From Patescibacteria group bacterium (GTDB taxonomy: Bacteria > Patescibacteriota > Minisyncoccia > Phycocordibacterales > Zambryskibacteraceae): a stretch of 64,000 bases of DNA. Positions 23,309-56,561 of the stretch are shown piece after piece. The stretch lies in assembly GCA_004322205.1 (NCBI GenBank), contig SCSN01000005.1, positions 6,642 to 70,641 of the forward strand. The letters run 5' to 3'. How positions within the stretch are numbered: position 1 is the first letter of the stretch; each line of letters begins with the position of its first letter. The notes below the pieces were generated by a model. That model saw only the letters and a program-made list of their open reading frames with translations. It was not told the DNA's origin and made no database searches. Position numbers and translations under genes: made by a program.

Positions 23309-23318
23309 GATAGAAAAG

Positions 23319-23390
23319 TGCGCGCGGAAAGGATCGAACTTTCGGCCTTCCCCTTATCAGAGGGATGCTCTACCACTGAGCTACGCGCGC
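23319..23390 (-). tRNA. tRNA-Ile (anticodon GAU)
   Basis: Minus-strand sequence GCGCGCGTAGCTCAGTGGTAGAGCATCCCTCTGATAAGGGGAAGGCCGAAAGTTCGATCCTTTCCGCGCGCA folds as a cloverleaf: 7-bp acceptor stem, D-arm GCTC/GAGC, anticodon loop CUGAUAA (U33, GAU, A37), T-loop TTCGATC. CCA is not encoded. Confidence 0.8.
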
Positions 23391-24442: not shown

Positions 24443-25434
24443 TGAGATCGAATACTCGTTTCCGAGTGGGTCGTCTCACACCACTGGGCGAGCGGTTTTC
24501 CCGCACCCTAGCGGTTTCCATAGGTTTTTGCTTTCTTTCCATTAGCACGAATGTGGTCTCGTAATCGAACGATTCTTTCAAATCCCTTATCGCTCAAATG
24601 TTCTTTATTGCAGACCATTAGAACAACGGATTTGAATAACTTGTACGACTTCGCTTTCTTCGCCTGTAACGGATAGCGATCAAGGAATGGGAAGAGATAC
24701 TCCTTCATGTCCCAAATGCTTGTAATTTTGTACTTAGCATGAGGGAACCATCCATATCTCTCATATGAGAGATCGTATATCCTTCCCGCTCCAATGGTTA
24801 TTAGGATTCTCTCAAGGATTTCTTGATCATCCTTCCGAACTTCTATTTCAAACTCTGGACGGACTTCAAAACCTCTTTTTAAGGTTTTGTGTTTCCCAAT
24901 ACTTATCGAGAACGAGCCTTCGCCGTCGATGAATCCGACAACATGGTGCGGATTTAGCTTTTCCCTACGAATTTGTTCCTTTCCATACGGCTTCTGCAAC
25001 TTCAGGTTGCGTCTTCGATCTTTTGGAGACCAAAGACGCTGCCGTCTGGTACTACGAACTCTGCTGACTTCTTGCATAACGTTTACAGCAATCGCTTGCC
25101 GCATACTCTCGATGTTAGTTTACATTGAGATTATACAAGATCTCCCATGGTAACCCTGTGGACAATTTCTTCTCATCTCGATGCCACGATACGCTTATCG
25201 AATTTTTCACAGAAGGTTTCTCCATGTACTCGCAGGATAACCTCCGATAAGCGCCATTACTGGCATCCAAGCTAAGAAATGCTACTTTACCCCTTCAATC
25301 TAAATCCTCGCGGAAATAAATCTGGTATTTCGCTTCAAAACACTGTGAATTGTTTTGGTTGGACTTCCTCGCCCTCCGTAGCTTTAACGAAGGACGGGTC
25401 ACCAACTTGCACACAAGATCGCATGGCGACCCGA
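24443..25434 (-). mobile_element. About 1.0-kb group-I-type intron in 16S between CTTGTAC and A(C/T)ACCGCCCGTCA (about E. coli position 1391), carrying a LAGLIDADG ORF
   Basis: Conserved 16S blocks are interrupted. The 198-aa LAGLIDADG ORF lies in the 3' part and a ~330-nt non-coding core lies 5' of it. Confidence 0.65.
24508..25104 (-). CDS. LAGLIDADG-family homing endonuclease (single-motif) encoded within the 16S rRNA intron
   Basis: Contains HHVVGFIDGEGSFSISI (LAGLIDADG variant GFIDGEGSF) and the typical downstream KILPFLDRYPL...K architecture. Confidence 0.8.
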   Translation of the reverse strand: MRQAIAVNVMQEVSRVRSTRRQRLWSPKDRRRNLKLQKPYGKEQIRREKLNPHHVVGFIDGEGSFSISIGKHKTLKRGFEVRPEFEIEVRKDDQEILERILITIGAGRIYDLSYERYGWFPHAKYKITSIWDMKEYLFPFLDRYPLQAKKAKSYKLFKSVVLMVCNKEHLSDKGFERIVRLRDHIRANGKKAKTYGNR

Positions 25435-25897
25435 GTACAAGACTTGAGAACGTATTCACCGCGGTATAGCTGACCCGCGATTACTAGCAATTCCGGCTTC
25501 ATGAGGTCGAGTTGCAGCCCTCAATCCGAACTGGCGCCGCTTTTCTTAGGATTGGCTCAGGGTTACCCCGTCGCGACCCGTTGTAGCGGCGATTGTATTA
25601 TGTGTGTGGCCCAGGGCATCAGAGGGCCATGCGGACTTGGCGTCATCCTCACCTTCCTCCCCCGTGAAGGGGCAGTCTCGCCTGACAAATATAACAGGCA
25701 ACGAGGGTTGCGTTCGTTACCCCACTGAAGGGAACAACTCAGATCACGAACTGACGACAGCCATGCAGCACCTGCCCCGCCGTCCTTGCGGACTGCCCGC
25801 TTTCGCGGACATTCGTCGGGGTTTCAAGCCCTGGTAAGGTTTTTCGTTTACCATCGAATTGAACCACATAATCCACTGCTTGTGCAAGTCCCCGTCT

Positions 25898-25929
<32 letters not shown>

Positions 25930-26030
25930 ACCCAGGCGGATCGCTTAACGCGTTAGCTTCGCCTCTCAGAGGGTCGATACTCCGAAAAGCCAGCGATCAT
26001 CGTTTAGGGCGTAGACTACTGGGGTATCTA

Positions 26031-26826
26031 CAATATGTTACTGCCTGACAAACAGCTTTTAGGTTTTAGCTATAAGCCGTTAGTAAATGCAGATGCGGAT
26101 ATTTCTACCGCATTCTCATAGTCGCCTATGAGTTCGGACTATATCTTCTCCCCACCAGTTTTACTTCCGTAAAACTAGTGGGGGGCTTGGCGTTTAGTCT
26201 CTGAGGGGAACACAAGGTTTACTTTCTTCAAACAGTACAATTTCATCGCCTCTGCTCAGGATCTTGACGAGTTTCACTGGAACATCTCTTACATGAGGGC
26301 TTCGAGATAGGCGGCAATCTGCCTTCTCTTTAGCCTCCCAATCCGAAGACGCTTCAAAGTCCTCGAACTGCATCGTTATCTGAGTCTCAGGGCCTAACCC
26401 GCATTGTAACGGTCGGCGAAGAGTCGCAATCCTTCGATGCTCGAAGTGGTATTTCATACTACCTCCTTTATGTTCTTCCCTGCTGATTGTCCGCACCGGA
26501 TGGATTTTCACTTTCTGCCAATTTGATCAGAGAGTACCACCGGATACTATTCGGATTTTCCAGCATATAGCTCACGCCGTCGCCTCGCGGCCATGGCGGA
26601 TTCGCGTTCCGATAAATCGGAACGGAACAAGTTTATATTCCGACATTGCTGCCGGACGGAACTAACACTCAACGTACCCCTACGCTTCGTCTGATTTTGA
26701 TTTGCATCTCCACCAGAACGAGCATACTTTTTTGAAAAGACTTCGCGCAGGCCGATGAGGCCGAGCGAGAAGAAAAATTTCACCAGAAATTTATTCTGGT
26801 CTTTTCAAAAAATGTATGCGAGTGAT
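26031..26826 (-). other. About 0.8-kb intron-like insertion in 16S between GGATTAGA and TACCC (about E. coli position 788-789), with no recognisable homing-endonuclease ORF
   Basis: Exon sequence is broken exactly inside the conserved AGGATTAGATACCCTGGTAGTCC block. The ORFs inside (105 aa, 78 aa) have no LAGLIDADG, GIY-YIG or HNH motif. Confidence 0.6.
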
Positions 26827-27504
26827 TCTAATCCCATTCGCTACCTACGCTTTCGTGTTTCAGCGTTAGGAATGCGCCAGTGCACTGCCTTCGCTTTCGG
26901 TGTTCCCCATGATATCAACGGATTTCACCCCTACACCATGAGTTCCGTGCACCCCTCACACCCTCGAGCTGTGCCGTTTCTCCCGCGCGCCCCCGGTTAG
27001 GCCGGGGGATTTTACAGGAGACTAACACAACCGCCTACACACGCTTTACGCCCAGTGATTCCGGATAACGCTTGGGGCACTCGTATTACCGCTGCTGCTG
27101 GCACGAGTTTAGCAACCCCTTATTCGCCGGGTACTGTCAATAAACTTCATCCCCGGCAAAAGGTGTTTACGTCCCAGAGGGACTTCATCCACCACGCGGC
27201 GTCGCTCGATCAGGCTTTCGCCCATTGTCGAATATTCTCGGCTGCAGCCACCCGTAGGTGTATGGACCGTGTCTCAGTTCCATCGGTGGGGAACAGGCTC
27301 TCACCCCCCCTAGCCGTCATTGCCTTGGTAGGCCATTGCCCTACCAACAAGCTGATAGCCCGCAGGCCGCTCCCAAAGCGTCCGAAGACTTTGGTGTTGC
27401 CACCGCATCGGGAATTACCCCGCCTTTCGGCGAGCTATGCCCGACTTTGGGGTGCGTTCCTACGTGTTACTACCTCGTCTGCCGGTGATGCACCTCGCAA
27501 AACC

Positions 27505-27600
27505 TCGGTGCGAGTCTTAAAGTCGAAAGTCTGTAAAGTCCATAAAGTAAGAATTTTACTTTATGGACTTTATGACTTTATAAACTTTTGACTTGCATCG
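27505..27600. repeat. Palindromic AAAGTC/GACTTTATG-repeat hairpin insertion in the 16S 5' domain (V1 region); member of a 3-copy family shared with the 23S
   Basis: AAAGTCGAAAGTCTGTAAAGTCCATAAAGTAA-gaatt-TTACTTTATGGACTTTATGACTTTATAAACTTTTGACTT. The arms are mutually complementary and built from 8-9-nt units. Confidence 0.6.
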
Positions 27601-28108
27601 AACCTTCGTGAGATGCACCCCCTTGACTTGCATGCCTTATCCACGCCGCCAGCGTTCATCCTGAGCTAGGATCAAACTCTCAATAAAAGTCCAGAATTTT
27701 CGAGTCTCGCAAACGCGAGGCGAAGAAAATTATGATGACTTTTTTGACCCCGCCCTCTGACAGAGGGCGGGGTTCTCAAAACAGCATGCCAAAATTTTTT
27801 GCCGAAGCTCAAATTTTGGGCTGTTTTGGAACGGAACAAAAGAGAGAATAGTATCTTGTATCTTTTGAGTCGCAATTCAGGGTCTGTCCTCGCTCATCAC
27901 TTTATTTTTGGGGACTTGCCCCGTGAGATGGCGCCCCGCGTATGCGGGGCTATCTCATTGGGTTTCAAGTCACTTGCCTCACCCGTCGTGAAGCAAGATT
28001 TTTTCTTGCACTGAATTGTCAAAGAACTTGTCACCTCGCCTAGAGGGGACGCGGGATAATTATATGCGAGAAAAACATTGAGTCAAGTAGTCCAATACCC
28101 TAAAACCC

Positions 28109-36825: not shown

Positions 36826-36965
36826 GGTTCTGGCGGCTAGCTATTTCCCCCGCGAGGAGTATCACCCGCCCGACTGAATGATTTCAGTCATTCGGACAGG
36901 TCGCCACGGGCTTTCAGCCCGAGGCTGATCCGCCTAGGGTGGAAACTTCCGTGTCCTCGTAGGAG
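36826..36965 (-). ncRNA. Divergent 5S-rRNA-like paralog carrying an internal insertion of about 60 nt (second, possibly degenerate 5S copy)
   Basis: Shares ACACGGAAGTT..., GGTGATACTC..CGC..GGGGAAA.TAGCTAGCCGCCAG with the adjacent 5S. The middle is replaced by CCTAGGCGGATCAGCCTCGGGCTGAAAGCCCGTGGCGACCTGTCCGAATGACTGAAATCATTCAGTCGG. Confidence 0.4.
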
Positions 36966-36988
36966 AAATTTGAAAAGTTAAGTACTTT

Positions 36989-37098
36989 GTGCTGGCGGCT
37001 AGCTACTTTCCCCTTGCGAGTATCATCGCCACTACCGGGCTTAACTTCCGTGTTCGGAATGAGAACGGGTGTGACCCCGGCGTTAAGCCACCAACACA
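36989..37098 (-). rRNA. rrf: 5S rRNA
   Basis: Minus-strand GTGTTGGTGGCTTAACGCCGGGGTCACACCCGTTCTCATTCCGAACACGGAAGTTAAGCCCGGTAGTGGCGATGATACTCGCAAGGGGAAAGTAGCTAGCCGCCAGCAC aligns with bacterial 5S (CCGAACACGGAAGTTAAGC core). Confidence 0.8.
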
Positions 37099-37216
37099 AA
37101 GAACTCAACACCGCACTCTTAACCCAAACTGAAAAAGAAATTCAATCAAATGCTTTGAAGTGAGTGCGATTCGCGTCCGAATCGCACTGTGGAAAGAACA
37201 ACGTGAGACTTCGGCA

Positions 37217-37357
37217 TGGCCGTGGCAGGATTTGAACCTGCGACCCCTCCATGCACTGGAGCGCTCTGCCCTGACCTTCGAGTCCGTGCCAGAACTGCAG
37301 GTATTGCGTATTGCACGGAAAGCTCATGACTACGGTCAGTTTCTGAGCTACACGGCC
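37217..37357 (-). tRNA. Oversized (141-nt) tRNA-like element between 23S and 5S; canonical acceptor stem, D-stem and T-arm but about 65 extra nt
   Basis: GGCCGTG-TA-GCTC-AG...[long insert]...GAGC-G-CTCC-AGTGCAT-GGAG-GGGTC-GCAGG-TTCAAAT-CCTGC-CACGGCC-A. The 7-bp acceptor pairs perfectly and the T-loop is TTCAAAT. One fold places the anticodon loop as AGUGCAU (UGC, Ala) with a non-canonical G33. The extra sequence sits in the D-loop region. Confidence 0.45.
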
Positions 37358-37919
37358 AAACACAGATAACCCACTTCAAAGCATTTGATATCCTGCACAC
37401 TTGACCCCGTAGTAGTCCCGCTTTGCGGGATCACTACGGGTTGATTTCATGAAACAGGGTGAAGTTTATGTCTAGCACATTGGTTCGCACATTTCCCCAT
37501 AAGAATCGACGCGTTAGTACGCCTCGGCTCAACCCATTACTGGGCTTACACCTGGCGCCTATCAACGTGGTCATCTCCCACGGGTCTCAACGATTCCTAA
37601 TCTTGGGGCTGGCTTCCCTCTTAGATGCTTTCAGAGGTTATCCAAACCGAACTTAGCTACTCTGCGGTGCCCTTGGCAGGAACAGCAGATACACCAGAGG
37701 TTCGTTCTCTTCGGTCCTCTCGTACTAGAAGAGACCCCCCTCAAGAATCAACGCCTGCAGTAGATAGGAGACCAACCTGTCTCACGACGGTCTGAACCCA
37801 GCTCACGTAACTTTTTAATTGGCGAACAGCCAAACCCTTGGGAGCTTCTTCACCCCCAGGATAAGTTGAGCCGACATCGAGGTGCCGAACTCCGCCGTCG
37901 CTGTGGACGCTTGGGCGGA

Positions 37920-37953
<34 letters not shown>

Positions 37954-38438
37954 ATAATCTCCGGCCGCCTCTAACGCGGACCGTCGGTTCACTTGGCTCT
38001 GCTTTCGCATCTGCTCGGCACGTACGCCTCACAGTTAAGCCGGCTTGTGCCCATACACTATCGGCACGGTTTCCATTCGCGCCTAGCCGACCTTAATAGA
38101 CTCCTCCGTTACTCTTTAGGAGGATAGCGCCCCACTAAAACTGCCCACCAGATACTGTCTCTCGCCGTTTTTGCCGGCGAGGTTCAGAGCGCACATTTCA
38201 CAAGAATGGTATTTCACTGACGACTCCGGGTCGCCCGAGAGCGACCTTTCAAAGTCTCCCATCTATGCTACGCATGCAAAACATACACTCAATATCAAGT
38301 TGCAGTAAAGCTCCCGGGGTCTTTTCGTCTAACTGCAGGTAACCGGCATCTTCACCGGTATTGTATTTTCACCGAGCGGATCCCCGAGACAGTTCTCCAG
38401 TCATTACGCCATTCGTGCGCGTCGGAACTTCATGTTCC

Positions 38439-39183
<745 letters not shown>

Positions 39184-39901
39184 CATGCTTTCAGCTCCTC
39201 ATGGTTGCCCATGAGATTGGACTATGTCTTCACCATTTTCTGGTGTCTTGCGTATAGTCTCTGAGGATTCTTCCTTGTACACATCTGATAAAGAGTATGT
39301 ACGTTTTCTACCTCGATCATCGTTGAGCTTTTCACGAAGCTGTAGAATTTCCTTTCTTCCAATGTGATTTAAGTGGTCACCTCGGTACATTTTTTCTACA
39401 ATTTCCTTGAAGATCGAGAAGTTTTTTTTCTTTCGAGCGGAAAGAAAACCAAACCGCTGAAAAAATGGAACGATAATCTCTTGAAGTGATTTTATATTTG
39501 TCACTTCATAATAGATCACCCCATCTTTCCTCTCTCTAAGGGTTCCGCATCCGAGCGTATCTTTTATTTTCGCCAGGATTACACGATCTCTTTGAGATAT
39601 ATTGAACGAAGCGCAAAGTTTCCATTCATCTCGATAATCAAGCCTATGCTTGATTGAGACATTGAAGCTTCCTTCGCCATCAGTGAAGCCCGCAATGTAA
39701 TTGCCAAGAGCTACACCTATATTTTGTATTCCTTTGCTCATAATTTTAAGCAAGGAAGTTTCCTGCTAGTTGTCTGCAATACAGCGTTGTTACTGTGCTT
39801 CGACAGCGCGAGTAGTTGTATTTCTTCACCGCTTCAATTCTAGCGGACAGAGTTTCTAGCATACAGCAAGATTTTTTAACGTAACTACAACGGTCATTCT
39901 C
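39184..39901 (-). mobile_element. Group-I-type intron in 23S after CCGTAACTATA (about E. coli position 1917) carrying a LAGLIDADG homing endonuclease
   Basis: The conserved block CCGTAACTATAACGGTCCTAAGG is split by about 716 nt. The ORF lies inside. Confidence 0.7.
39199..39753 (-). CDS. LAGLIDADG-family homing endonuclease (intact motif)
   Basis: 184 aa. IAGFTDGEGSFNVSIKH LAGLIDADG motif. Homologous to the ORF at 38471-38896. Confidence 0.8.
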   Translation of the reverse strand: MLKIMSKGIQNIGVALGNYIAGFTDGEGSFNVSIKHRLDYRDEWKLCASFNISQRDRVILAKIKDTLGCGTLRERKDGVIYYEVTNIKSLQEIIVPFFQRFGFLSARKKKNFSIFKEIVEKMYRGDHLNHIGRKEILQLREKLNDDRGRKRTYSLSDVYKEESSETIRKTPENGEDIVQSHGQP

Positions 39902-40216
39902 TATAGTTACGGCCGACATTCACCAGGGCTTACAACGGTCAGCCCGCAATCTTGCGATCGCGAACCGCCATCGTTTGACCTTCTGGCATTGGTCAGGCGT
40001 CACCCCCTATACATCCTCTTGCGAGTTCGCAGGGAGCTGTGTTTTTGATAAACAGTTGCCAGAGATACTTTTGTTGCAGCCTCCCACACTCAACCCTCTT
40101 TCAAAAAGAGGGGGCGGTGGAGAAACCAGAGAATGGGCCGCGGCCCAGCATTGTTTCGCTGGTAGCCGATTAACGTGCTTCCCAGTTCACGACTGAATCC
40201 AACATCACATATTTCG

Positions 40217-40248
40217 CATGCGCATGCGAAATATGTGAGAGATCTTCA
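40217..40248. repeat. 32-nt perfect palindrome inside the 23S (another expansion-type insertion)
   Basis: CACATATTTCGCATGCGCATGCGAAATATGTG. Confidence 0.4.
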
Positions 40249-40884
40249 TCAGAATTCATTTCCTGTTTTTTCTCTGGCTCCTCCACTCTTGTGTACATTC
40301 ACTTCCCTAACAAAAGGGCTGAATGTGGGAGGCAAGCCTTATTCCGAGGTTACGGCTGCTTTTTTGCCGAGTTCCTTGGGGATTTCTCACTCGTTCGCCT
40401 TACTCTACTCGAGCAGACCACCTGTGTCGGTTTGCGGTACGGGCTTAATACGTTTAACCTTAGAAGTTTTTCTCGGAAGGCGGCTTGCGCAAATCGACTG
40501 GTCCGAAGACCAACCTTCTTCCCAACTCCTCCGGGCAATACTCTCCGGATTTTCCTAGAGAGCACCCTCGAGCCAGGAACGATAATCCAATAAATCGCTC
40601 GCGTTACTCACCTTCGTCACTCCATCGAAACGCATCAAGGTCACGGAATATTAACCGTGTGTCCATCGGCTGCGGCTTTCGCCATTGCCTTAGGCCCGAC
40701 TAACCCTTGGTTGATTGACATTGCCAAGGAAACCTTGGTCTTGCGGCGGGCCGCGTTCTCAGCGGCCTTGCGGTTACTTGTGCCAACATTCTTCCTTCGC
40801 AACGCTCCACCCCGACTTACGTCGTGGGCTTCACGGCAGATGCGAATACTCTCCTACCACGCTCGCGCGCAGCGCGAGCAAGTC

Positions 40885-40975
40885 AAAAGTTGAAAGTCTA
40901 TAAAGTCTCTAAAGCAAATTTTTTGAATTCACTTTCAGACTTTATGGACTTTATGGAACTTTAAACTTGCTTGTG
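40885..40975. repeat. Palindromic AAAGTC/GACTTTATG-repeat hairpin insertion in 23S (copy B)
   Basis: AAGTCAAAAGTTGAAAGTCTATAAAGTCTCTAAAG...CACTTTCAGACTTTATGGACTTTATGGAACTTTAAACTTGCTT. Confidence 0.55.
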
Positions 40976-41056
40976 CTACGCACAAGCATCCTCAATTTCG
41001 GTACCACGCTTAAGCCCCGATTATCTTCGGCGCAGAGTCTCTATCTGAGTGAGCTG

Positions 41057-41099
<43 letters not shown>

Positions 41100-41644
41100 C
41101 AGTGTCAGAGAAACTCCACCACCTTACGTGCACTGAGCATGGATTTAGGGACCTTAAGTTGAGATGCGGGCTGTTTCCCTTTTGACCAATGGAGCTTAGC
41201 CCCCACGGTCTAACTGCCGCGCTTTTACCCGGAGTATTCGGAGTTTGATAGGTCTGGCGAGCTTTCGCCCTGTCCAGACCTTCCAGTGCTCTACCCCTCC
41301 GGGGAACACGCGACGCAAGCCCAAAAGCTTTTTCGGAGAGAACCAGCTATTACCAAGTTCGATTAGCTTTTCACTTCTTATCACAAGTCATCCGAGAGTT
41401 TTGCACAGCTCACCGGTTCGGGCCTCCTCCCCGCTTTCGCGGGGATTCACCCTGCTCATGACAAGCTCACTTGGCTTCGGGTCTGATGCTATACCTCATC
41501 CGCCGATTGGCGGATCGCCCTGTTCAGACTCGCTTTCGCTATGCCTCCAGGGACAAACCCCTTAGACAAAGGTGTAGCATCAACTCGTTGGCTCATTCTT
41601 CAATAGGCACGCCGTTGCGGACATCACGCAAAGTATGATGTCCG

Positions 41645-41735
41645 CAAGTCTGTAAAGTCAAAAGTCAAAAGTCAAAAGTTAGGAACAAGTGCTCCGACTT
41701 TATGGACTTTATGACTTTATGGACTTTTAACTTGC
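41645..41735. repeat. Palindromic AAAGTC/GACTTTATG-repeat hairpin insertion in 23S (copy C)
   Basis: CCGCAAGTCTGTAAAGTCAAAAGTCAAAAGTCAAAAGTTAGG...CCGACTTTATGGACTTTATGACTTTATGGACTTTTAACTTGCGG. Confidence 0.55.
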
Positions 41736-41817
41736 GGCATCACACACTGTGTGATGCCCGCTTCGACTCCTTGTAGACATATGGTTTCAGGTCTATTTCA
41801 CCGCCCTCACCGGGCTG

Positions 41818-41857
<40 letters not shown>

Positions 41858-43176
41858 TCTAAAAGTATTTAGCCTTGCCGGTTAGTTCCGGCAGATTCCC
41901 CCGAGCCACTCGTGTCTCGAGGTACTCAAGAACAGTAACAGAAGAGATGTTTCATTTTCACGTACGGGACTGTTACCCTCTTGGGTCGAGCGTTCCAGCT
42001 CGTTTTGTTAATGAAACACTTTGTAACTCTTTTCCCTCACTAACTCTGCTACCAAGAGTGCCTGGGCACTGCTTCGGAACAAAGTTAGTGAGGGGTGTTA
42101 CCGCCTTACTACCCCCACCTACGCTCCTTGCTTCCCAGCAAGAAGCTTCGGTGGGCACAGCCCAGCAACTGGTGCTGAGCTTGCCCGGCCGAAGTTCTTT
42201 GCGAAGCAAAGAACGGAGGCGGGTTTGGGCTTCTTCCTTTTCGCTCGCCGCTACTAAGGAAATTCTAGTTGGTTTCTTTTCCTCCAGGTACTGAAATGTT
42301 TTACTTCCCTGGGTTTACACGTAGGCATCTAAGTCCTACATTCCCGACGCGAAGTCAGGAGGGTTTCCCCATTCGGAGATCTCCGGATCAAAGGTTGCTA
42401 GGCACCTCCCCGAAGCGTATCGCCGCCACGCCGCGTCCTTCATCGCCTTTTAGAGCCAAGGCATCCACCATACGCCCTTACATTTCCTATGAGGAAATGT
42501 ACGAACCGCTTACCCGAATCATTTTTGCTACGCAAAAATGATTCGGGCTTTTACTTCATCCCGTACCAACTTTGCAACTGAACTACGGCGCGAAGTGCGA
42601 GTGGCAAGTAGCCACATTCTTCTTCACGGCGCAGCGCTTCGCCCATCGAGGGAGGCACTATTCGTGCACGCACTGCGCAAAATAACTTCAGAAGCAAAAT
42701 TGGTACGGGGCTTCACCCTGTTTCATGAAATCAATTCATACAACAGGATTTTTCCCGTACGAAATCGGTTATCCTTGATAACCGTAGTTTTTTGTACGGG
42801 ACCTGCGTCCCGCCCATATTCATGGGCGGGACAAGCTTGCCTTCAAACGAAGACCCCCTTACCCGCAATCCGCCGGCTGGCGGAGCGGGAGAGAAACGTT
42901 TGCGACAAGCATTTAGTTGTCAAAGAGCCGACCCATTGACGTTCAGAAACGAAAATCGCCGCTCTCAAAGCGGCGACAGGTAACACACTTAGACACGGTG
43001 CTACCATTTCCGCTTTGAGAAAAGATTGCGAAGATACGTCATACAGGTGCACACTTAGTATAGTCAAGCCAAAAAAGCTGTCAAATTAGCTGGGGAAAAC
43101 AAACAGCCCCCCGTGAGATGTCGCGCTCTACGCGCTATCTCACGGGAGGCTGTCTTATCCCAAATTACAGCGTATC

Positions 43177-53564: not shown

Positions 53565-53910
53565 TACCTAGGGTAAGAGCAACGATTAGCACCAATACAT
53601 AGAACCAAAGATGCTTAATAAAATAGGGGTCGAAGCTGATTAAATAAATGAGCGGCAGAATAAGTAAAATTCCAAGAATTACATAATCCGTCTTTTTTGC
53701 TAAATAGGAAAGAAACAACGTGCTGAAAAAAATAAACGCGGGAGCTATGCCGGAAAAATATTCAGAAGCGTCTGGTCCAATCCAACCGCCCCCACACTCA
53801 AAGTTAAGACAGAACAATTTTCCAAAAATAAGAGACGTATAATGTGAAAAGATTAATATTAAAATAACTCCTATAATTCTAATAAACGCTTCCATATTAA
53901 TGATTATCAA
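53524..53910 (-). CDS. Small multi-TM membrane protein (array member 1), start overlapping the lipase gene stop
   Basis: 128 aa with 4 TM helices. Confidence 0.45.
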   Translation of the reverse strand: MIIINMEAFIRIIGVILILIFSHYTSLIFGKLFCLNFECGGGWIGPDASEYFSGIAPAFIFFSTLFLSYLAKKTDYVILGILLILPLIYLISFDPYFIKHLWFYVLVLIVALTLGIVLRQIIAKTKST

Positions 53911-56561
53911 TTATTAATTAACCATTCAATGTCTTCTTTGATTAAATTATACGCCCGCTCATTAATTTTGTCCTTTTCATAGAGTTTTAAATCCAAAATA
54001 AGGGCTTTGAGTAATTTTTTATCAATCTTTTTTCCTGATTTTGCCGAATTAACCTTTTTAATCAGGGCATCTCTGCTCTTTTTGTCTTTTATCCAGCCCA
54101 AATGATAAGACCTGTTTATATCAGATATTGTGCTATCAATCGTTGCAATAATATTAAAGTTTACCGATGATCTTGACATATTGAAGAACATATCAAAAGC
54201 CGAAGCGGAAACAAAATGTTCCCCCAATTCTTCAAAAAACAAATCAATTGAGATATTACTACTAGTCGGCTTATCATCAAAAAGTATCGTTGATGAAGCA
54301 ATCCCTGAATTATCATCAGAAATGTTTACATCAATTGATAATGTTTCTGATCTCAAGTAATCTTTGTGGGTTGGCGAATTAATAGAAACTAAAGGAGAAG
54401 TGGTGTCTTCCGGAATTGCTTTAAGAGGAACCTCCTTGTCTGAATCTATGCCTAATAAAATGTTTTGAATTAGCTGCGGCTCTGTTATTCCTAGAATATC
54501 TTCTTCAGCGGATTTCTCCCCATCAAAATATCCCATTGCTAATGTGTACTCTCCACTTCCTGTTCCCTGAACTTGAACCATATATTCGCCATCAAGCGGA
54601 TTTGGTATTGAAACAAATTCACTGTCGGTGAGAAAGCCAGAATAAAAGGCGCCTAGAACTTCATTAATTTCCTGCCCTGTTGTGAAGTCTTTGCCGACTT
54701 TTTTGCCGTCCGGTGCAATTACCAAAATATCTGCCGGGGAGAGAACCTTTATAATAATTGATTTGAAGTTCGGCACGTTTGGATTGTCAATAATAATTGT
54801 GGCATTTCGACCGGTGAGTCTATTGAATACTAAATCACTGAACTGTTCTGGCAATCTCGAATGTTTTACATCTCTTAGTACAACATCTAATACTGGCATG
54901 CTGTCGGAACTTACTATTGGTACAGTTTTATCACCTTGGACTCTCTCCAACCCATTGTCAGAAGAATTAGAGTCTTTAAATCCATCGGGGTACCCGTCTT
55001 CCCACATTGGAGAAGTGCTAGCCGCAACAACTCTTATTGTGCCAATTGTATCTGCTCCCGTATTTCCGATAAAATTGGAAATTTTTACACCAGAATTTAG
55101 CAAAGAATTGGTATTTGCCGAAAGCGCTTCGAGGAAATTATTTATTGGATATCCAAGAGGATAATTCCTTAACTGATTTGAACTCTTATCCTTCAAATAA
55201 TCGTAAATTGGTAATAATTCTTGGATAGATACGACTGGCTTATTTCTTACATAATCAAAAATAGATTGATAATTACTTTTCTGCGCTTCCCTAAGAAAAA
55301 AGAACTTTTTTACACTATCAAAAACATCTCTTATATCAATTTCTCCCCCTTCCCATGTTAAGTAGGCCTCGGGGGCCCCTAAGTGCGGGGTGCCGAGAAA
55401 TATCAATTGGCCAACATCTCCTTGATACTTGCTTGACTGAATATACTCGCGCGCGATCAGACCACCCATTGAATGCGCAACTAAGTCAACCTTTGCGCAC
55501 TGGCAGGTATTTTTTACTTCGTCAATTTTAAAACGAAGATTAATGGCATTAACCACATTAGACAATCTCCAGTCGTAGGGAAACGTAAAGAGATTTTGAT
55601 CATTGGCATAACCATTTGCCTTCAAAGTGTCGAGAAGGTCGTCGTATGTATGTAAAACAGGATCGATGACCCACGCCCCGCTCTTTAGCTGTGAACCAAG
55701 AAGGCCGGGGATGATAATCACAGGATCTAATTTAGTTTGTTGCCCCGGGGGTGCGCCGAGCCAAGGGATAAAATCTATTCTTTCCGAAATTGGTTGTCCG
55801 AGACCGTTAGGATTAACAATGGGATTACTTGGACCCGTAGGATCACCCCACCAACTGAACCTTGCATCGGCTTGAGTGGCGCCGGAGTTATTGTAGGCAA
55901 CAACGTTCCGCTCAAAAGAAGAATGGGTCGCGCTTGAACTACCCACCTCAATAAAAATCCCTGCGTCGTTGTCAGTAAAAGTAGAACCAGTGATATCTAT
56001 ACTCCCGGTGTTCTCTCTCACGGCAGCAAAACCGTTAAAGGAAAACGTGCTTGTACTCACAGTCACTAAACCGCCTTCATTGAAAAGGGCGCCCAATTCG
56101 CTGACAAAGATATTTGGAGTGATACCTCCTCCATATTCGAACACGAGATTATTCAGAACACCTTGAGAGCCTGAATAAAATCGAACTCCATGAAAATCGT
56201 TTTTCTGTGGGAAAGTCGCGCTTCCGTCCCCGTTCGAATCCCCTCCAACCGAGTCATCCCTTACAGAAGTAAAGTGAACTGGTTCCGCCGCCGTGCCATT
56301 AACAACAAGTTGGCCGAAAACATGTATTCTGCCATTGTCTGTAACACCGCGCCCAAATTTCACAACTGTGCCCGGATCAATAGTTAGAGTTGCACCGGGA
56401 AAAATCGAAAAAAATATATCACCCAGAATCAAATACGGGTCATTTGTCTTTGTCCAGGTCGTATCAACTGTTATATCTTGCTGAACTAGAGTGGCGGCTA
56501 GAGTGTTTCTAGCTGCGAGAAGTGCCAACAACACAAAGCCGACAAGAAAAACTCTTTTCAC
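53907..56561 (-). CDS. Secreted 884-aa protein with an N-terminal right-handed beta-helix-like region and a central LCAT/PGAP1-like alpha/beta-hydrolase (lipase/acyltransferase) domain; GTG start
   Basis: Signal peptide MKRVFLVGFVLLALLAARNTLA. G/N/T/S-rich beta-helix-like repeats at residues 60-260. Lipase core: PVIIIPGLLGS...YDWRLS...VDLVAHSMGGLIAREYI (GxSxG)...FLGTPHLGA. Long C-terminal region with a K-rich tail. Confidence 0.7.
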   Translation of the reverse strand: MKRVFLVGFVLLALLAARNTLAATLVQQDITVDTTWTKTNDPYLILGDIFFSIFPGATLTIDPGTVVKFGRGVTDNGRIHVFGQLVVNGTAAEPVHFTSVRDDSVGGDSNGDGSATFPQKNDFHGVRFYSGSQGVLNNLVFEYGGGITPNIFVSELGALFNEGGLVTVSTSTFSFNGFAAVRENTGSIDITGSTFTDNDAGIFIEVGSSSATHSSFERNVVAYNNSGATQADARFSWWGDPTGPSNPIVNPNGLGQPISERIDFIPWLGAPPGQQTKLDPVIIIPGLLGSQLKSGAWVIDPVLHTYDDLLDTLKANGYANDQNLFTFPYDWRLSNVVNAINLRFKIDEVKNTCQCAKVDLVAHSMGGLIAREYIQSSKYQGDVGQLIFLGTPHLGAPEAYLTWEGGEIDIRDVFDSVKKFFFLREAQKSNYQSIFDYVRNKPVVSIQELLPIYDYLKDKSSNQLRNYPLGYPINNFLEALSANTNSLLNSGVKISNFIGNTGADTIGTIRVVAASTSPMWEDGYPDGFKDSNSSDNGLERVQGDKTVPIVSSDSMPVLDVVLRDVKHSRLPEQFSDLVFNRLTGRNATIIIDNPNVPNFKSIIIKVLSPADILVIAPDGKKVGKDFTTGQEINEVLGAFYSGFLTDSEFVSIPNPLDGEYMVQVQGTGSGEYTLAMGYFDGEKSAEEDILGITEPQLIQNILLGIDSDKEVPLKAIPEDTTSPLVSINSPTHKDYLRSETLSIDVNISDDNSGIASSTILFDDKPTSSNISIDLFFEELGEHFVSASAFDMFFNMSRSSVNFNIIATIDSTISDINRSYHLGWIKDKKSRDALIKKVNSAKSGKKIDKKLLKALILDLKLYEKDKINERAYNLIKEDIEWLINN

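Follow-up and report, generated by a model that had tools for sequence, protein, structure and literature searches.

The stretch of DNA analysed here, hereafter the window, is a 64-kb segment of contig SCSN01000005.1 and comes, judging by its sequence, from a Parcubacteria-type bacterium of the candidate phyla radiation (CPR, or Patescibacteria). Its RodA protein is 100% identical to one that NCBI assigns to a 'Patescibacteria group bacterium', and the next relatives of this protein, at 74% identity or less, are Zambryskibacteria, Kaiserbacteria and other Parcubacteria. An earlier note on this DNA, made from the letters alone, had singled out a 141-nucleotide (nt) transfer RNA (tRNA)-like element between the genes for the 23S and the 5S ribosomal RNA (rRNA), and this element is the subject of the present work. 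It lies there on the minus strand with the sequence that the note described, and both its fold (z = -3.96 against shuffled sequences) and an uninterrupted ortholog at the same place in a relative show that it is not a product of chance. The features of the locus, all read from the higher to the lower coordinate, are the following:

37493 to 42494, minus strand: 23S rRNA gene, 5002 nt, with about 2 kb of insertions (the model has 2925 positions)
37369 to 37389, minus strand: left (5') arm of a bracketing helix, AUCAAAUGCUUUGAAGUGGGU, 21 base pairs (bp), 95% complementary
37217 to 37357, minus strand: the whole tRNA-like element, 141 nt, recognized by sequence, fold z-score, a partial match to the Rfam tRNA model and a match to a custom covariance model
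37351 to 37357, minus strand: 5' strand of the acceptor stem, GGCCGUG, with 7/7 Watson-Crick pairs to CACGGCC at 37218-37224
37343 to 37350, minus strand: U8-A9, 5' strand of the D-stem (GCUC, 37348-37345) and A14-G15, from the sequence parse
37271 to 37342, minus strand: 72-nt insert in the D-loop (alpha region), between A14-G15 and G18G19, from folding
37262 to 37270, minus strand: G18-G19-C-A21, 3' strand of the D-stem (GAGC, 37266-37263) and G26, from the sequence parse
37247 to 37261, minus strand: equivalent of the anticodon arm, a perfect 5-bp stem CUCCA/UGGAG with the 5-nt loop GUGCA, from the sequence parse
37225 to 37246, minus strand: variable loop GGGUC and T-arm GCAGG-UUCAAAU-CCUGC, with 5/5 pairs in the T-stem and a canonical T-loop
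37163 to 37188, minus strand: local hairpin with an 11-bp stem between the element and the right arm, from pairing search and folding
37145 to 37165, minus strand: right (3') arm of the bracketing helix, ACUCACUUCAAAGCAUUUGAU, pairing with the left arm
36990 to 37095, minus strand: 5S rRNA gene, 121 nt downstream of the element

The layout of the element is GGCCGUG-UA-GCUC-AG-(72 nt)-GGCA-GAGC-G-CUCCA-GUGCA-UGGAG-GGGUC-GCAGG-UUCAAAU-CCUGC-CACGGCC-A. The parts follow the normal order on one strand, from the 5' acceptor strand and the D-arm to the T-arm and the 3' acceptor strand, which disposes of the permuted tRNA that the earlier note had considered, and of a split tRNA as well. The acceptor stem, D-stem and T-arm had been called perfect, and counting of the pairs bore this out (7/7, 4/4 for GCUC/GAGC and 5/5). 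The features of a tRNA body are all there: U8, A14, G18G19-C-A21, a UUCRANY-type T-loop and every stem. Its anticodon loop, however, does not have the usual 7 nt with U33 and purine 37, and the element as a whole is longer than the 70 to 95 nt or so of tRNAs. It ends on A73 at 37217 and is followed by the trailer UGCC, CCA not being encoded. The surplus over a normal tRNA, first put at about 65 nt, is present and slightly larger, with 72 nt added to a core of 69 nt.

The minimum free energy (MFE) of the element is -61.7 kcal/mol, and none of 200 shuffled sequences folded as well. In the corresponding architecture the D-arm is closed by a GAGC of the insert and accompanied by three hairpins. 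We rejected it for a cloverleaf carrying the insert in its D-loop (-59.5 kcal/mol as a constrained fold, 2.2 above the MFE) because the ortholog without an insert, found in the relative L022, is colinear with the 3' 54 nt of the element, and because G18G19-A21 then take their expected places. Homology thus favours the fold of the earlier note in which the surplus is lodged in the D-loop.

Such a gene is easily overlooked by tRNA finders. ARAGORN made no call at the element under default settings, and its transfer-messenger RNA (tmRNA) and mitochondrial-tRNA modes found nothing there. The intron and pseudogene options, suggested in the note as a check, returned no acceptable tRNA, the forced call being an implausible 'Thr(agt)' that combines a broken D-arm with an intron of 55 nt and a variable region of 25 nt. 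The Rfam tRNA model (RF00005) scored the 3' 69 nt alone, at 27.9 bits, under its gathering score of 29, and a custom covariance model scored the same 69 nt at 39.1 bits; both matches take GGACUCG as a mismatched acceptor strand. The tRNA-Ile(GAU) of the window (23318-23390) is fully canonical, with 73 bits, and odd tRNA shapes are therefore not the norm of this genome.

For comparison, relatives were gathered as RodA homologs with their flanks, all from metagenome assemblies. About 60 of them are syntenic and keep the order MS-channel gene, 23S, spacer, 5S, VWA, RodA … SecDF, 16S; some spacers were obtained in identical form from independent samples (L013/L014/L025 and L017/L018). The 23S-5S spacer has a length of 49 to 1067 nt and is empty where it is short; many longer spacers contain between one and three tRNA-shaped genes, which are not of the same identity in different lineages. 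In some relatives this same spacer is filled by canonical tRNAs, normal-looking decoders such as Lys-CUU, Val-UAC, Thr-CGU, Pro-CGG and Phe-GAA. Many spacer elements show anticodons unused by bacteria (AGC, AAA, AUU, AAU), and the odd ones have loops of 5, 6, 8 or 11-16 nt, A33 or G33, and anticodon stems that are bulged or 7 bp long; some carry inserts of 20-80 nt in the anticodon loop, and three have a hairpin in the D-loop. The 457-nt spacer of L026 (3705-4161) is of another kind, with repeated copies resembling the 5' region of 5S (UUCUGGUGAUUUAUCGCAGAGGUUACAC…) and no tRNA-like element. Tandem partial duplicates of a tRNA gene were seen in L067 (2122-2329), and L091 (4368-4468) has a 101-nt tRNA-like gene at a locus where neither 23S nor 5S was detected; in this lineage, therefore, the rRNA spacer is not the sole place of over-long or rearranged tRNA genes. 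A 138-nt candidate of a loose scanner in L085 (1943-2080), inside a 23S insertion, was not confirmed by the covariance model and was not counted.

The element of the window has orthologs that allow its parts to be compared one by one:

Window: 141 nt; acceptor stem GGCCGUG/CACGGCC; pair 3:70 C-G; anticodon stem CUCCA/UGGAG; loop GUGCA (5 nt); insert of 72 nt
L021/L022: 72 nt; acceptor stem GGCCGUG/CACGGCC; pair 3:70 C-G; anticodon stem UGAGC/GCUCA; loop UCGCAG (6 nt); no insert
L013: 73 nt; acceptor stem GGACUUG/CAGGUCC; pair 3:70 A-U; anticodon stem CCCUC/GAGGG; loop UUAGCAA (7 nt); no insert
L020: 122 nt; acceptor stem GUGCCUG/CAGGCCC; pair 3:70 G-C; anticodon stem CCGCA/UGCGG; loop CUAGCAC (7 nt); palindromic insert of 51 nt, unrelated in sequence

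The core of the window element shares 67-71% identity with these orthologs; in the flanking spacer the figure is 35-46%, the level of unrelated sequence. The ortholog of L021/L022, which is the 5S-proximal element, has the identical acceptor stem and shares with the window the framework GUAGCUCA…GAGCG. The GGCA-GAGC segment is identical in L020, where the insert sits between A14-A15 and GGCA-GAGC as it does in the window, and reads GGUA-GAGC in L022; U8 and A14 are invariant across the family alignment. The anticodon arm behaves differently. Its stem is perfect in all four forms and different in each, all five pairs having changed, and the four loops, of 5, 6, 7 and 7 nt, have GCA alone in common. 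The discriminators are A, U, G and A.

The earlier note had proposed a tRNA-Ala(UGC), and the ancestry behind this proposal is plausible from the sequences: opening the A-U pair that closes the loop gives AGUGCAU, 7 nt with G33, in which UGC is followed by A37, and GCA occurs in every ortholog loop, as expected of a spacer tRNA of the alanine type (NGC-A37). A functional tRNA-Ala(UGC), whose insert would be removed as an intron or tolerated as a fifth arm, is another matter. It would agree with A73, which fits alanine, with the tRNA-Ala(UGC) classically carried by rRNA operons, and with the fact that ARAGORN found no other tRNA-Ala in the 64-kb window. It is contradicted by pair 3:70. G3:U70 is the established, universal identity determinant for alanyl-tRNA synthetase, and the element has C3-G70 instead. 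Moreover, UGC can be read only once the closing pair is opened, since the loop otherwise has 5 nt, and the reading then brings in G33; the orthologs present AGC or GCA in wrong-sized loops, with 6 nt or with A34, and neither ARAGORN nor Rfam accepts the element. Because the loop length is not conserved among the orthologs and G3:U70 is absent, this group does not consist of alanine decoders. Membership among tmRNAs is opposed by the same C-G pair and by the negative tmRNA mode of ARAGORN. Sequence comparison thus points to a structurally maintained molecule that very probably derives from a tRNA and does not decode.

The idea of a working tRNA also draws on the introns of CPR tRNAs, which do hide genes from detectors (PMC8172020). 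Like the genes of intron-containing tRNAs, that of the element is interrupted by extra sequence and missed by default finders; unlike theirs, its insert has neither a ribozyme core nor a bulge-helix-bulge (BHB). No Rfam match to the group I intron model (Intron_gpI) was obtained at E<=10 over 36900-37600. Group I introns have a catalytic core (P3-P8), are usually at least 200 nt long and in tRNAs occupy the anticodon loop, so that 72 nt is far below their size. In archaeal tRNAs, BHB introns occur at D-loop positions among others. Inspection of the insert junctions in the constrained fold revealed no BHB, the two 3-nt bulges with 4 bp between them being impossible to place there; nor is an endonuclease for BHB introns known from bacteria. 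Excision of the insert would in any case leave the anticodon loop as defective as before. The intron-containing tRNA of the earlier note is not supported by these results, and a functional tRNA-Ala(UGC) appears very improbable.

Taken alone, the insert folds into a long imperfect hairpin of -24.6 kcal/mol with the helices CUGACC/GGUCAG, GAG(C)/(A)CUC and CCGUGCC/GGCACGG; in the constrained fold of the whole element, an asymmetric internal loop (AGAAA/GGCA) connects the D-stem to a 6-bp helix. Its last 15 nt, GGACUCGAAGGUCAG, match the first 15 nt of the element, GGCCGUGUAGCUCAG, at 10 of 15 positions in exact register (shuffle p about 8e-4), and this is the top non-self match in the spacer. 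The insert therefore looks like an internal duplication, probably one in which the outer copy still pairs with the 3' acceptor strand while the inner copy has decayed into one strand of the new hairpin; such a duplication would also explain why tRNA models see a near-complete tRNA in the 3' 69 nt. Two other origins were discarded. Against a plain tandem duplication, the 57 nt upstream of the element are by inspection not visibly like the first 57 nt of the insert, the 15-nt copy alone being detectable. As for a mobile element, BLAST against the window and about 90 related loci gave chance matches of 11-13 nt, two of them to conserved 23S segments, and no significant repeat of the insert elsewhere in these sequences. 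The site of the insert, positions 16-17a, belongs to the part of the D-loop that naturally varies in length, and it faces the solvent in the L-shape of tRNA. L020 and L017 have independently acquired unrelated hairpins at the same D-loop site, and both fold that way without constraint.

Is the element then simply a dead gene? It could be a spacer tRNA pseudogene whose D-loop was enlarged by a duplication or insertion and whose anticodon loop was altered by an indel, and which is transcribed and then discarded with the spacer, its good stems reflecting no more than a recent origin. The defective anticodon loop and the missing G3:U70 fit such neutral decay, as do an insert that resembles a duplication accident and is unique to the window, and the absence of the element from many relatives. 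The stems do not. We counted 19 spacer elements, that of the window included, in which the anticodon arm or the D-loop departs from the canonical form, and in these non-canonical elements, which belong to independent lineages and whose loops vary freely, 131/133 acceptor pairs, 93/95 T-stem pairs and 74/76 D-stem pairs are intact. With 97-98% of stem pairs kept in the class, the element is not a freely decaying pseudogene. In a model-based alignment of 39 family members, 95.6% of the cells are paired, against 35-49% in controls slid by one to three columns, with double changes at 20 of 21 pairs, a result which shows mainly that the cloverleaf holds rather than selection on any single element. 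A sharper argument comes from the comparison with L022 (RodA 71% identical): the acceptor stem is the same, each of the five pairs of the anticodon stem has been exchanged in a compensated way, and the enclosed loop has become shorter; this indicates an old divergence during which pairing was kept. The conservation of the core well above its flanks points in the same direction. The pseudogene with an insertion, another option of the earlier note, thus describes the origin of the element well and its present state poorly, and we consider a neutral relic quite unlikely.

The element does not stand alone in its spacer. The two arms of the 21-bp helix lie 11 nt upstream and 51 nt downstream of it, and when the whole module was folded (-107.4 kcal/mol, z = -6.5) the bracketing helix and the acceptor stem were both formed. 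In at least 12 relatives an equivalent helix of 15-24 bp surrounds the tRNA block; the sequences differ and the pairing is kept, that is, the arms covary. As in the intervening sequences (IVSs) of 23S rRNA that are excised by RNase III, a near-perfect covarying helix of about 20 bp closes off the enclosed block. A 12-nt inverted repeat with 83% complementarity was also noticed between the T-arm of the element (37225-37236) and the outer edge of the left bracket arm (37385-37396), which could give an alternative pairing.

Modules of this design occur inside 23S rRNA genes as well. Within those of L042 (1097-1192), L049 (1557-1743) and L063 (87-180), tRNA or tRNA-like genes are each enclosed in a covarying helix of 21 bp, for example GUUUGUAGACUUCAUCAAGGA/UCCUUGAUGAAGUCUACAAGC, and the arms differ in sequence from those of the window. 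The site is in all three a terminal hairpin at about positions 1207-1226 of the Rfam large-subunit (LSU) rRNA model, between …CCGAA… and GGUAGGAGAG…, which we take to be helix 45 of 23S rRNA, the classical site of an IVS excised by RNase III. Helix 45 has been described as an IVS site in general (PMC4990558) and for CPR bacteria (PMC11270868). In the window the corresponding hairpin (40858-40990, minus strand) holds an A/U-rich insertion of about 110 nt that extends the helix, with no tRNA inside. L084 (2973-3046) carries a module within an insertion that corresponds to 4708/4709 of the window 23S, and the similar helix arms at this other site hint that the module moves. From their sequences, the tRNA-bearing IVSs imply a fragmented 23S rRNA in L042, L049, L063 and L084.

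Some of the cargos could have a life of their own. Those of L063 and L042, and that of L058 (131-274), combine G3:U70 with A73, and CCA is encoded in the first two; in L063 and L058 a hairpin domain of 28-82 nt stands where the anticodon loop would be, and the structured insert of L042 is of comparable size. Such look-alikes could be chargeable and yet unable to decode. They bring up the alternative that the rRNA operon serves as an expression platform for a free tRNA-like small RNA, released by RNase III, RNase P and RNase Z, which might be, for example, a chargeable aminoacyl donor for non-ribosomal use or a scaffold of the Y RNA/YrlA type, with the D-loop arm and the GCA loop as functional surfaces. 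The presence of modules at three different sites of the rRNA operon would suit a free RNA, as would the conservation of GCA in loops of 5-7 nt and the upkeep of the stems in spite of the roughly 20 of 58 relatives that do without a spacer element. Against it, the window element itself has C3-G70 and encodes no CCA, the varying discriminators (A, U, G, A) argue against one charging identity, the identity of the cargo differs widely among close relatives, and no partner protein gene is linked.

YrlA, a bacterial precedent for tRNA-like domains in non-coding RNAs, deserves a closer look in this context. We scanned 185,579 species genomes for the exact sequence of the T-arm and the 3' acceptor strand and obtained 11 matches, none of them a canonical tRNA: eight are coincidences in coding sequence (the 'RQWFKSCHGL' motif of GAF domains and the 'FKSCHG' motif of SEC-C), one is a Thorarchaeota contig, and two are YrlA RNAs of Acidobacteriota. 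The latter (L004, 5088-5208, and L012) are encoded beside a Ro/Rsr-like open reading frame (ORF) and are identical to the window element at 35 nt, which comprise the T-loop, the 3' strand of the T-stem, the acceptor stem and UAGCUCAG; coincidence, convergence or common descent may account for this. YrlA (RF02553) is likewise non-decoding, with a tRNA-like T-arm, an acceptor-like stem and a D-arm. It differs in being circularly permuted (T-arm, closed acceptor hairpin, D-arm), in having a Ro-binding stem where a tRNA has its anticodon arm, and in lying beside rsr, whereas in the window element the parts are not permuted and the acceptor ends are open. The Rfam YrlA model gave no match in the window at E<=10, in contrast to 50 bits for L004, and there was no TROVE/Ro gene among the ten scanned ORFs nearest the rRNA genes. 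The identification as YrlA was dropped because of the different topology, the missing Rfam match and the lack of rsr nearby, and a free small RNA seems on the whole unlikely.

What explains the element best, to our mind, is that a non-decoding tRNA relic, co-transcribed with 23S and 5S, is kept as a folded module by which RNase P and RNase Z, assisted by RNase III, would process the rRNA precursor; we give this reading a probability of about one half. Of the four options of the earlier note, the tRNA-like processing signal is accordingly the one that fits best. The ancestor would have been a spacer tRNA with an alanine-type anticodon loop (NGC-A37), which lost what decoding demands, namely the 7-nt loop, U33 and G3:U70, and preserved what end-processing enzymes would recognize: the 7-bp acceptor stem stacked on the 5-bp T-arm, the T-loop, U8, A14 and the G18G19 elbow. 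The 72-nt hairpin would project from the solvent-exposed positions 16-17 of the D-loop and leave the L-shape undisturbed. With the tRNA-like block at the tip of the 21-bp spacer helix, RNase III would cut the helix, RNase P would cut 5' of G1, after the U at -1 (the leader ends in this U in the window, L022 and L020), and RNase Z presumably after A73, because CCA is not encoded. These cuts would separate the precursors of 23S and 5S and open entry points for RNase J and PNPase. If rRNA maturation came to depend on them, the tRNA fold would, in this proposal, stay under selection even after decoding had passed to another gene. RNase III, RNase J and PNPase belong to the conserved RNases of CPR bacteria (PMC12641178), and short non-intron insertions at known IVS sites of CPR 23S rRNA have been ascribed to IVSs cleaved by RNase III (PMC11270868).

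Several points weigh against such a processing role. The bracketing helix and RNase III could by themselves be sufficient for the separation, which would leave no necessary role for the tRNA fold. About 20 of the 58 relatives have short spacers (49-142 nt) and no tRNA-like element, and the element is therefore not needed for separating 23S and 5S across the lineage. Since it ends 121 nt before 5S, it does not directly set the mature 5S end, unlike its counterpart in Haloferax. The CCA of some non-canonical relatives, and the G3:U70 of three, hint at charging, and perhaps at a role as free RNA, in at least a part of the class. Paralogous tRNAs are combined in the family alignment, which was moreover fitted to a model, and its pair statistics are therefore biased towards the cloverleaf. 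Finally, the insert is shared by no ortholog, no relative exceeding 74% RodA identity, and its structure therefore has no support from covariation.

The concept of a tRNA-like processing signal is already known from archaea and organelles. Mitochondrial tRNA punctuation, the t-elements of plant mitochondria and mascRNA all use non-decoding tRNA folds as marks for RNase P and RNase Z; in contrast to the window element, these are organellar or nuclear and come without a bracketing helix or an expanded D-loop. To our knowledge, the cutting of rRNA precursors at tRNA folds occurs in mitochondria and haloarchaea and has not been known from bacteria. The closest precedent comes from Haloferax volcanii, where tRNase Z cleaves a tRNA-like structure that precedes the 5S rRNA (Hoelzle 2008, RNA 14:928, as related in PMC3296008 and PMC7714728); to it can be added the 'tRNA-like elements' of Haloferax (Hoelzle 2012). 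As far as these accounts go, the two systems have in common a non-decoding tRNA mimic in the 23S-5S interval whose acceptor stem and T-arm can be read by an end-processing nuclease, and the window element resembles both the t-elements and the Haloferax 5S leader in being an acceptor/T-arm mimic without decoding features, embedded beside an RNA that needs end maturation. They part in that the Haloferax leader is archaeal and its cleavage directly makes the mature 5' end of 5S; the window element is bacterial and ends 121 nt before 5S. It is also, set against the same accounts, a near-complete cloverleaf from a real tRNA, with a 72-nt arm in the D-loop, inside a 21-bp helix.

Two bacterial systems can be compared as well. 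The spacer tRNAs of bacterial rRNA operons (Ile and Ala between 16S and 23S, and distal ones) are co-transcribed with rRNA and share with the element an alanine-type loop ancestry and the excision by RNase P and RNase Z that we propose here; they are functional decoders, whereas the element has a loop of 5 nt (or G33), lacks G3:U70 and contains an insert of 72 nt. The IVSs in helices 25 and 45 of 23S rRNA, in Salmonella or Coxiella for example (PMC4990558, PMC11270868), likewise enclose an expendable insert in a long near-perfect helix, and they carry nothing or a small ORF, whereas the module of the window has a tRNA look-alike as its cargo and lies in the 23S-5S spacer. We found no published description of non-decoding tRNA look-alikes in rRNA spacers, of hairpin expansions in the D-loop or of tRNA cargo bracketed by a helix at the helix-45 site. 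Lui et al. 2021 (PMC8172020) described CPR bacteria with unlinked rRNA genes, sometimes with a tRNA in the 23S-5S interval, and with group I introns that keep tRNAs from being recognized, and a 2024 survey of insertions in CPR rRNA (PMC11270868) never mentions tRNA.

The rest of the window shows some further features. The 16S gene (25389-27687) measures 2299 nt against 1533 in the model. Protein genes lie in the 9 kb that separate it from 5S, which is upstream on the same strand, and the rRNA genes are thus unlinked. The homology of the 23S gene to those of relatives is interrupted by a gap of about 1.47 kb, which contains an ORF of the LAGLIDADG family (39199-39753). Just downstream of the annotated 3' end of 16S and upstream of tRNA-Ile(GAU), a region at 24508-25106 comprises a second LAGLIDADG ORF (24508-25104) and an Rfam match to domains D1-D4 of a group II intron (25018-25106, 36.4 bits). 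Between 52000 and 56000 the G+C content drops to 36-40%, against about 50%, over an ORF of 884 amino acids resembling lipase/LCAT (53907-56561), and this stretch may have been acquired horizontally. The genes of the window otherwise encode ordinary bacterial functions in envelope and division.

Together, these observations lead us to a broader suggestion, which we offer tentatively as one possibility: Parcubacteria-type CPR bacteria may carry a so far undescribed class of rRNA-operon modules, in which a covarying helix of about 20 bp surrounds one to three tRNAs or tRNA look-alikes, at the 23S-5S spacer, at the helix-45 IVS or at an intron-type insertion of 23S. Selection would act on the elbow core and leave the anticodon arm and the D-loop free to vary (loops of 5-16 nt, hairpins of 20-80 nt), and some of the cargos, which keep G3:U70, A73 and CCA, might be charged RNAs that do not decode and whose production keeps pace with that of ribosomes. 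The element of the window would then be the largest D-loop expansion among the members seen. In annotation, such elements either escape notice or pass for tRNAs whose anticodons are impossible (AGC, AAA, AUU, AAU or '???'), and this distorts the tRNA counts used for the completeness of metagenome-assembled genomes and for codon capacity. The hairpins in the D-loop are natural experiments on the tolerance of the tRNA fold for a fifth arm and should be useful for tRNA engineering. CPR bacteria make their ribosomes with about half of the usual assembly factors and with few RNases; if the processing role proposed here is true, they recruit the universal enzymes of tRNA processing to cut their intron-laden and unlinked rRNA precursors.

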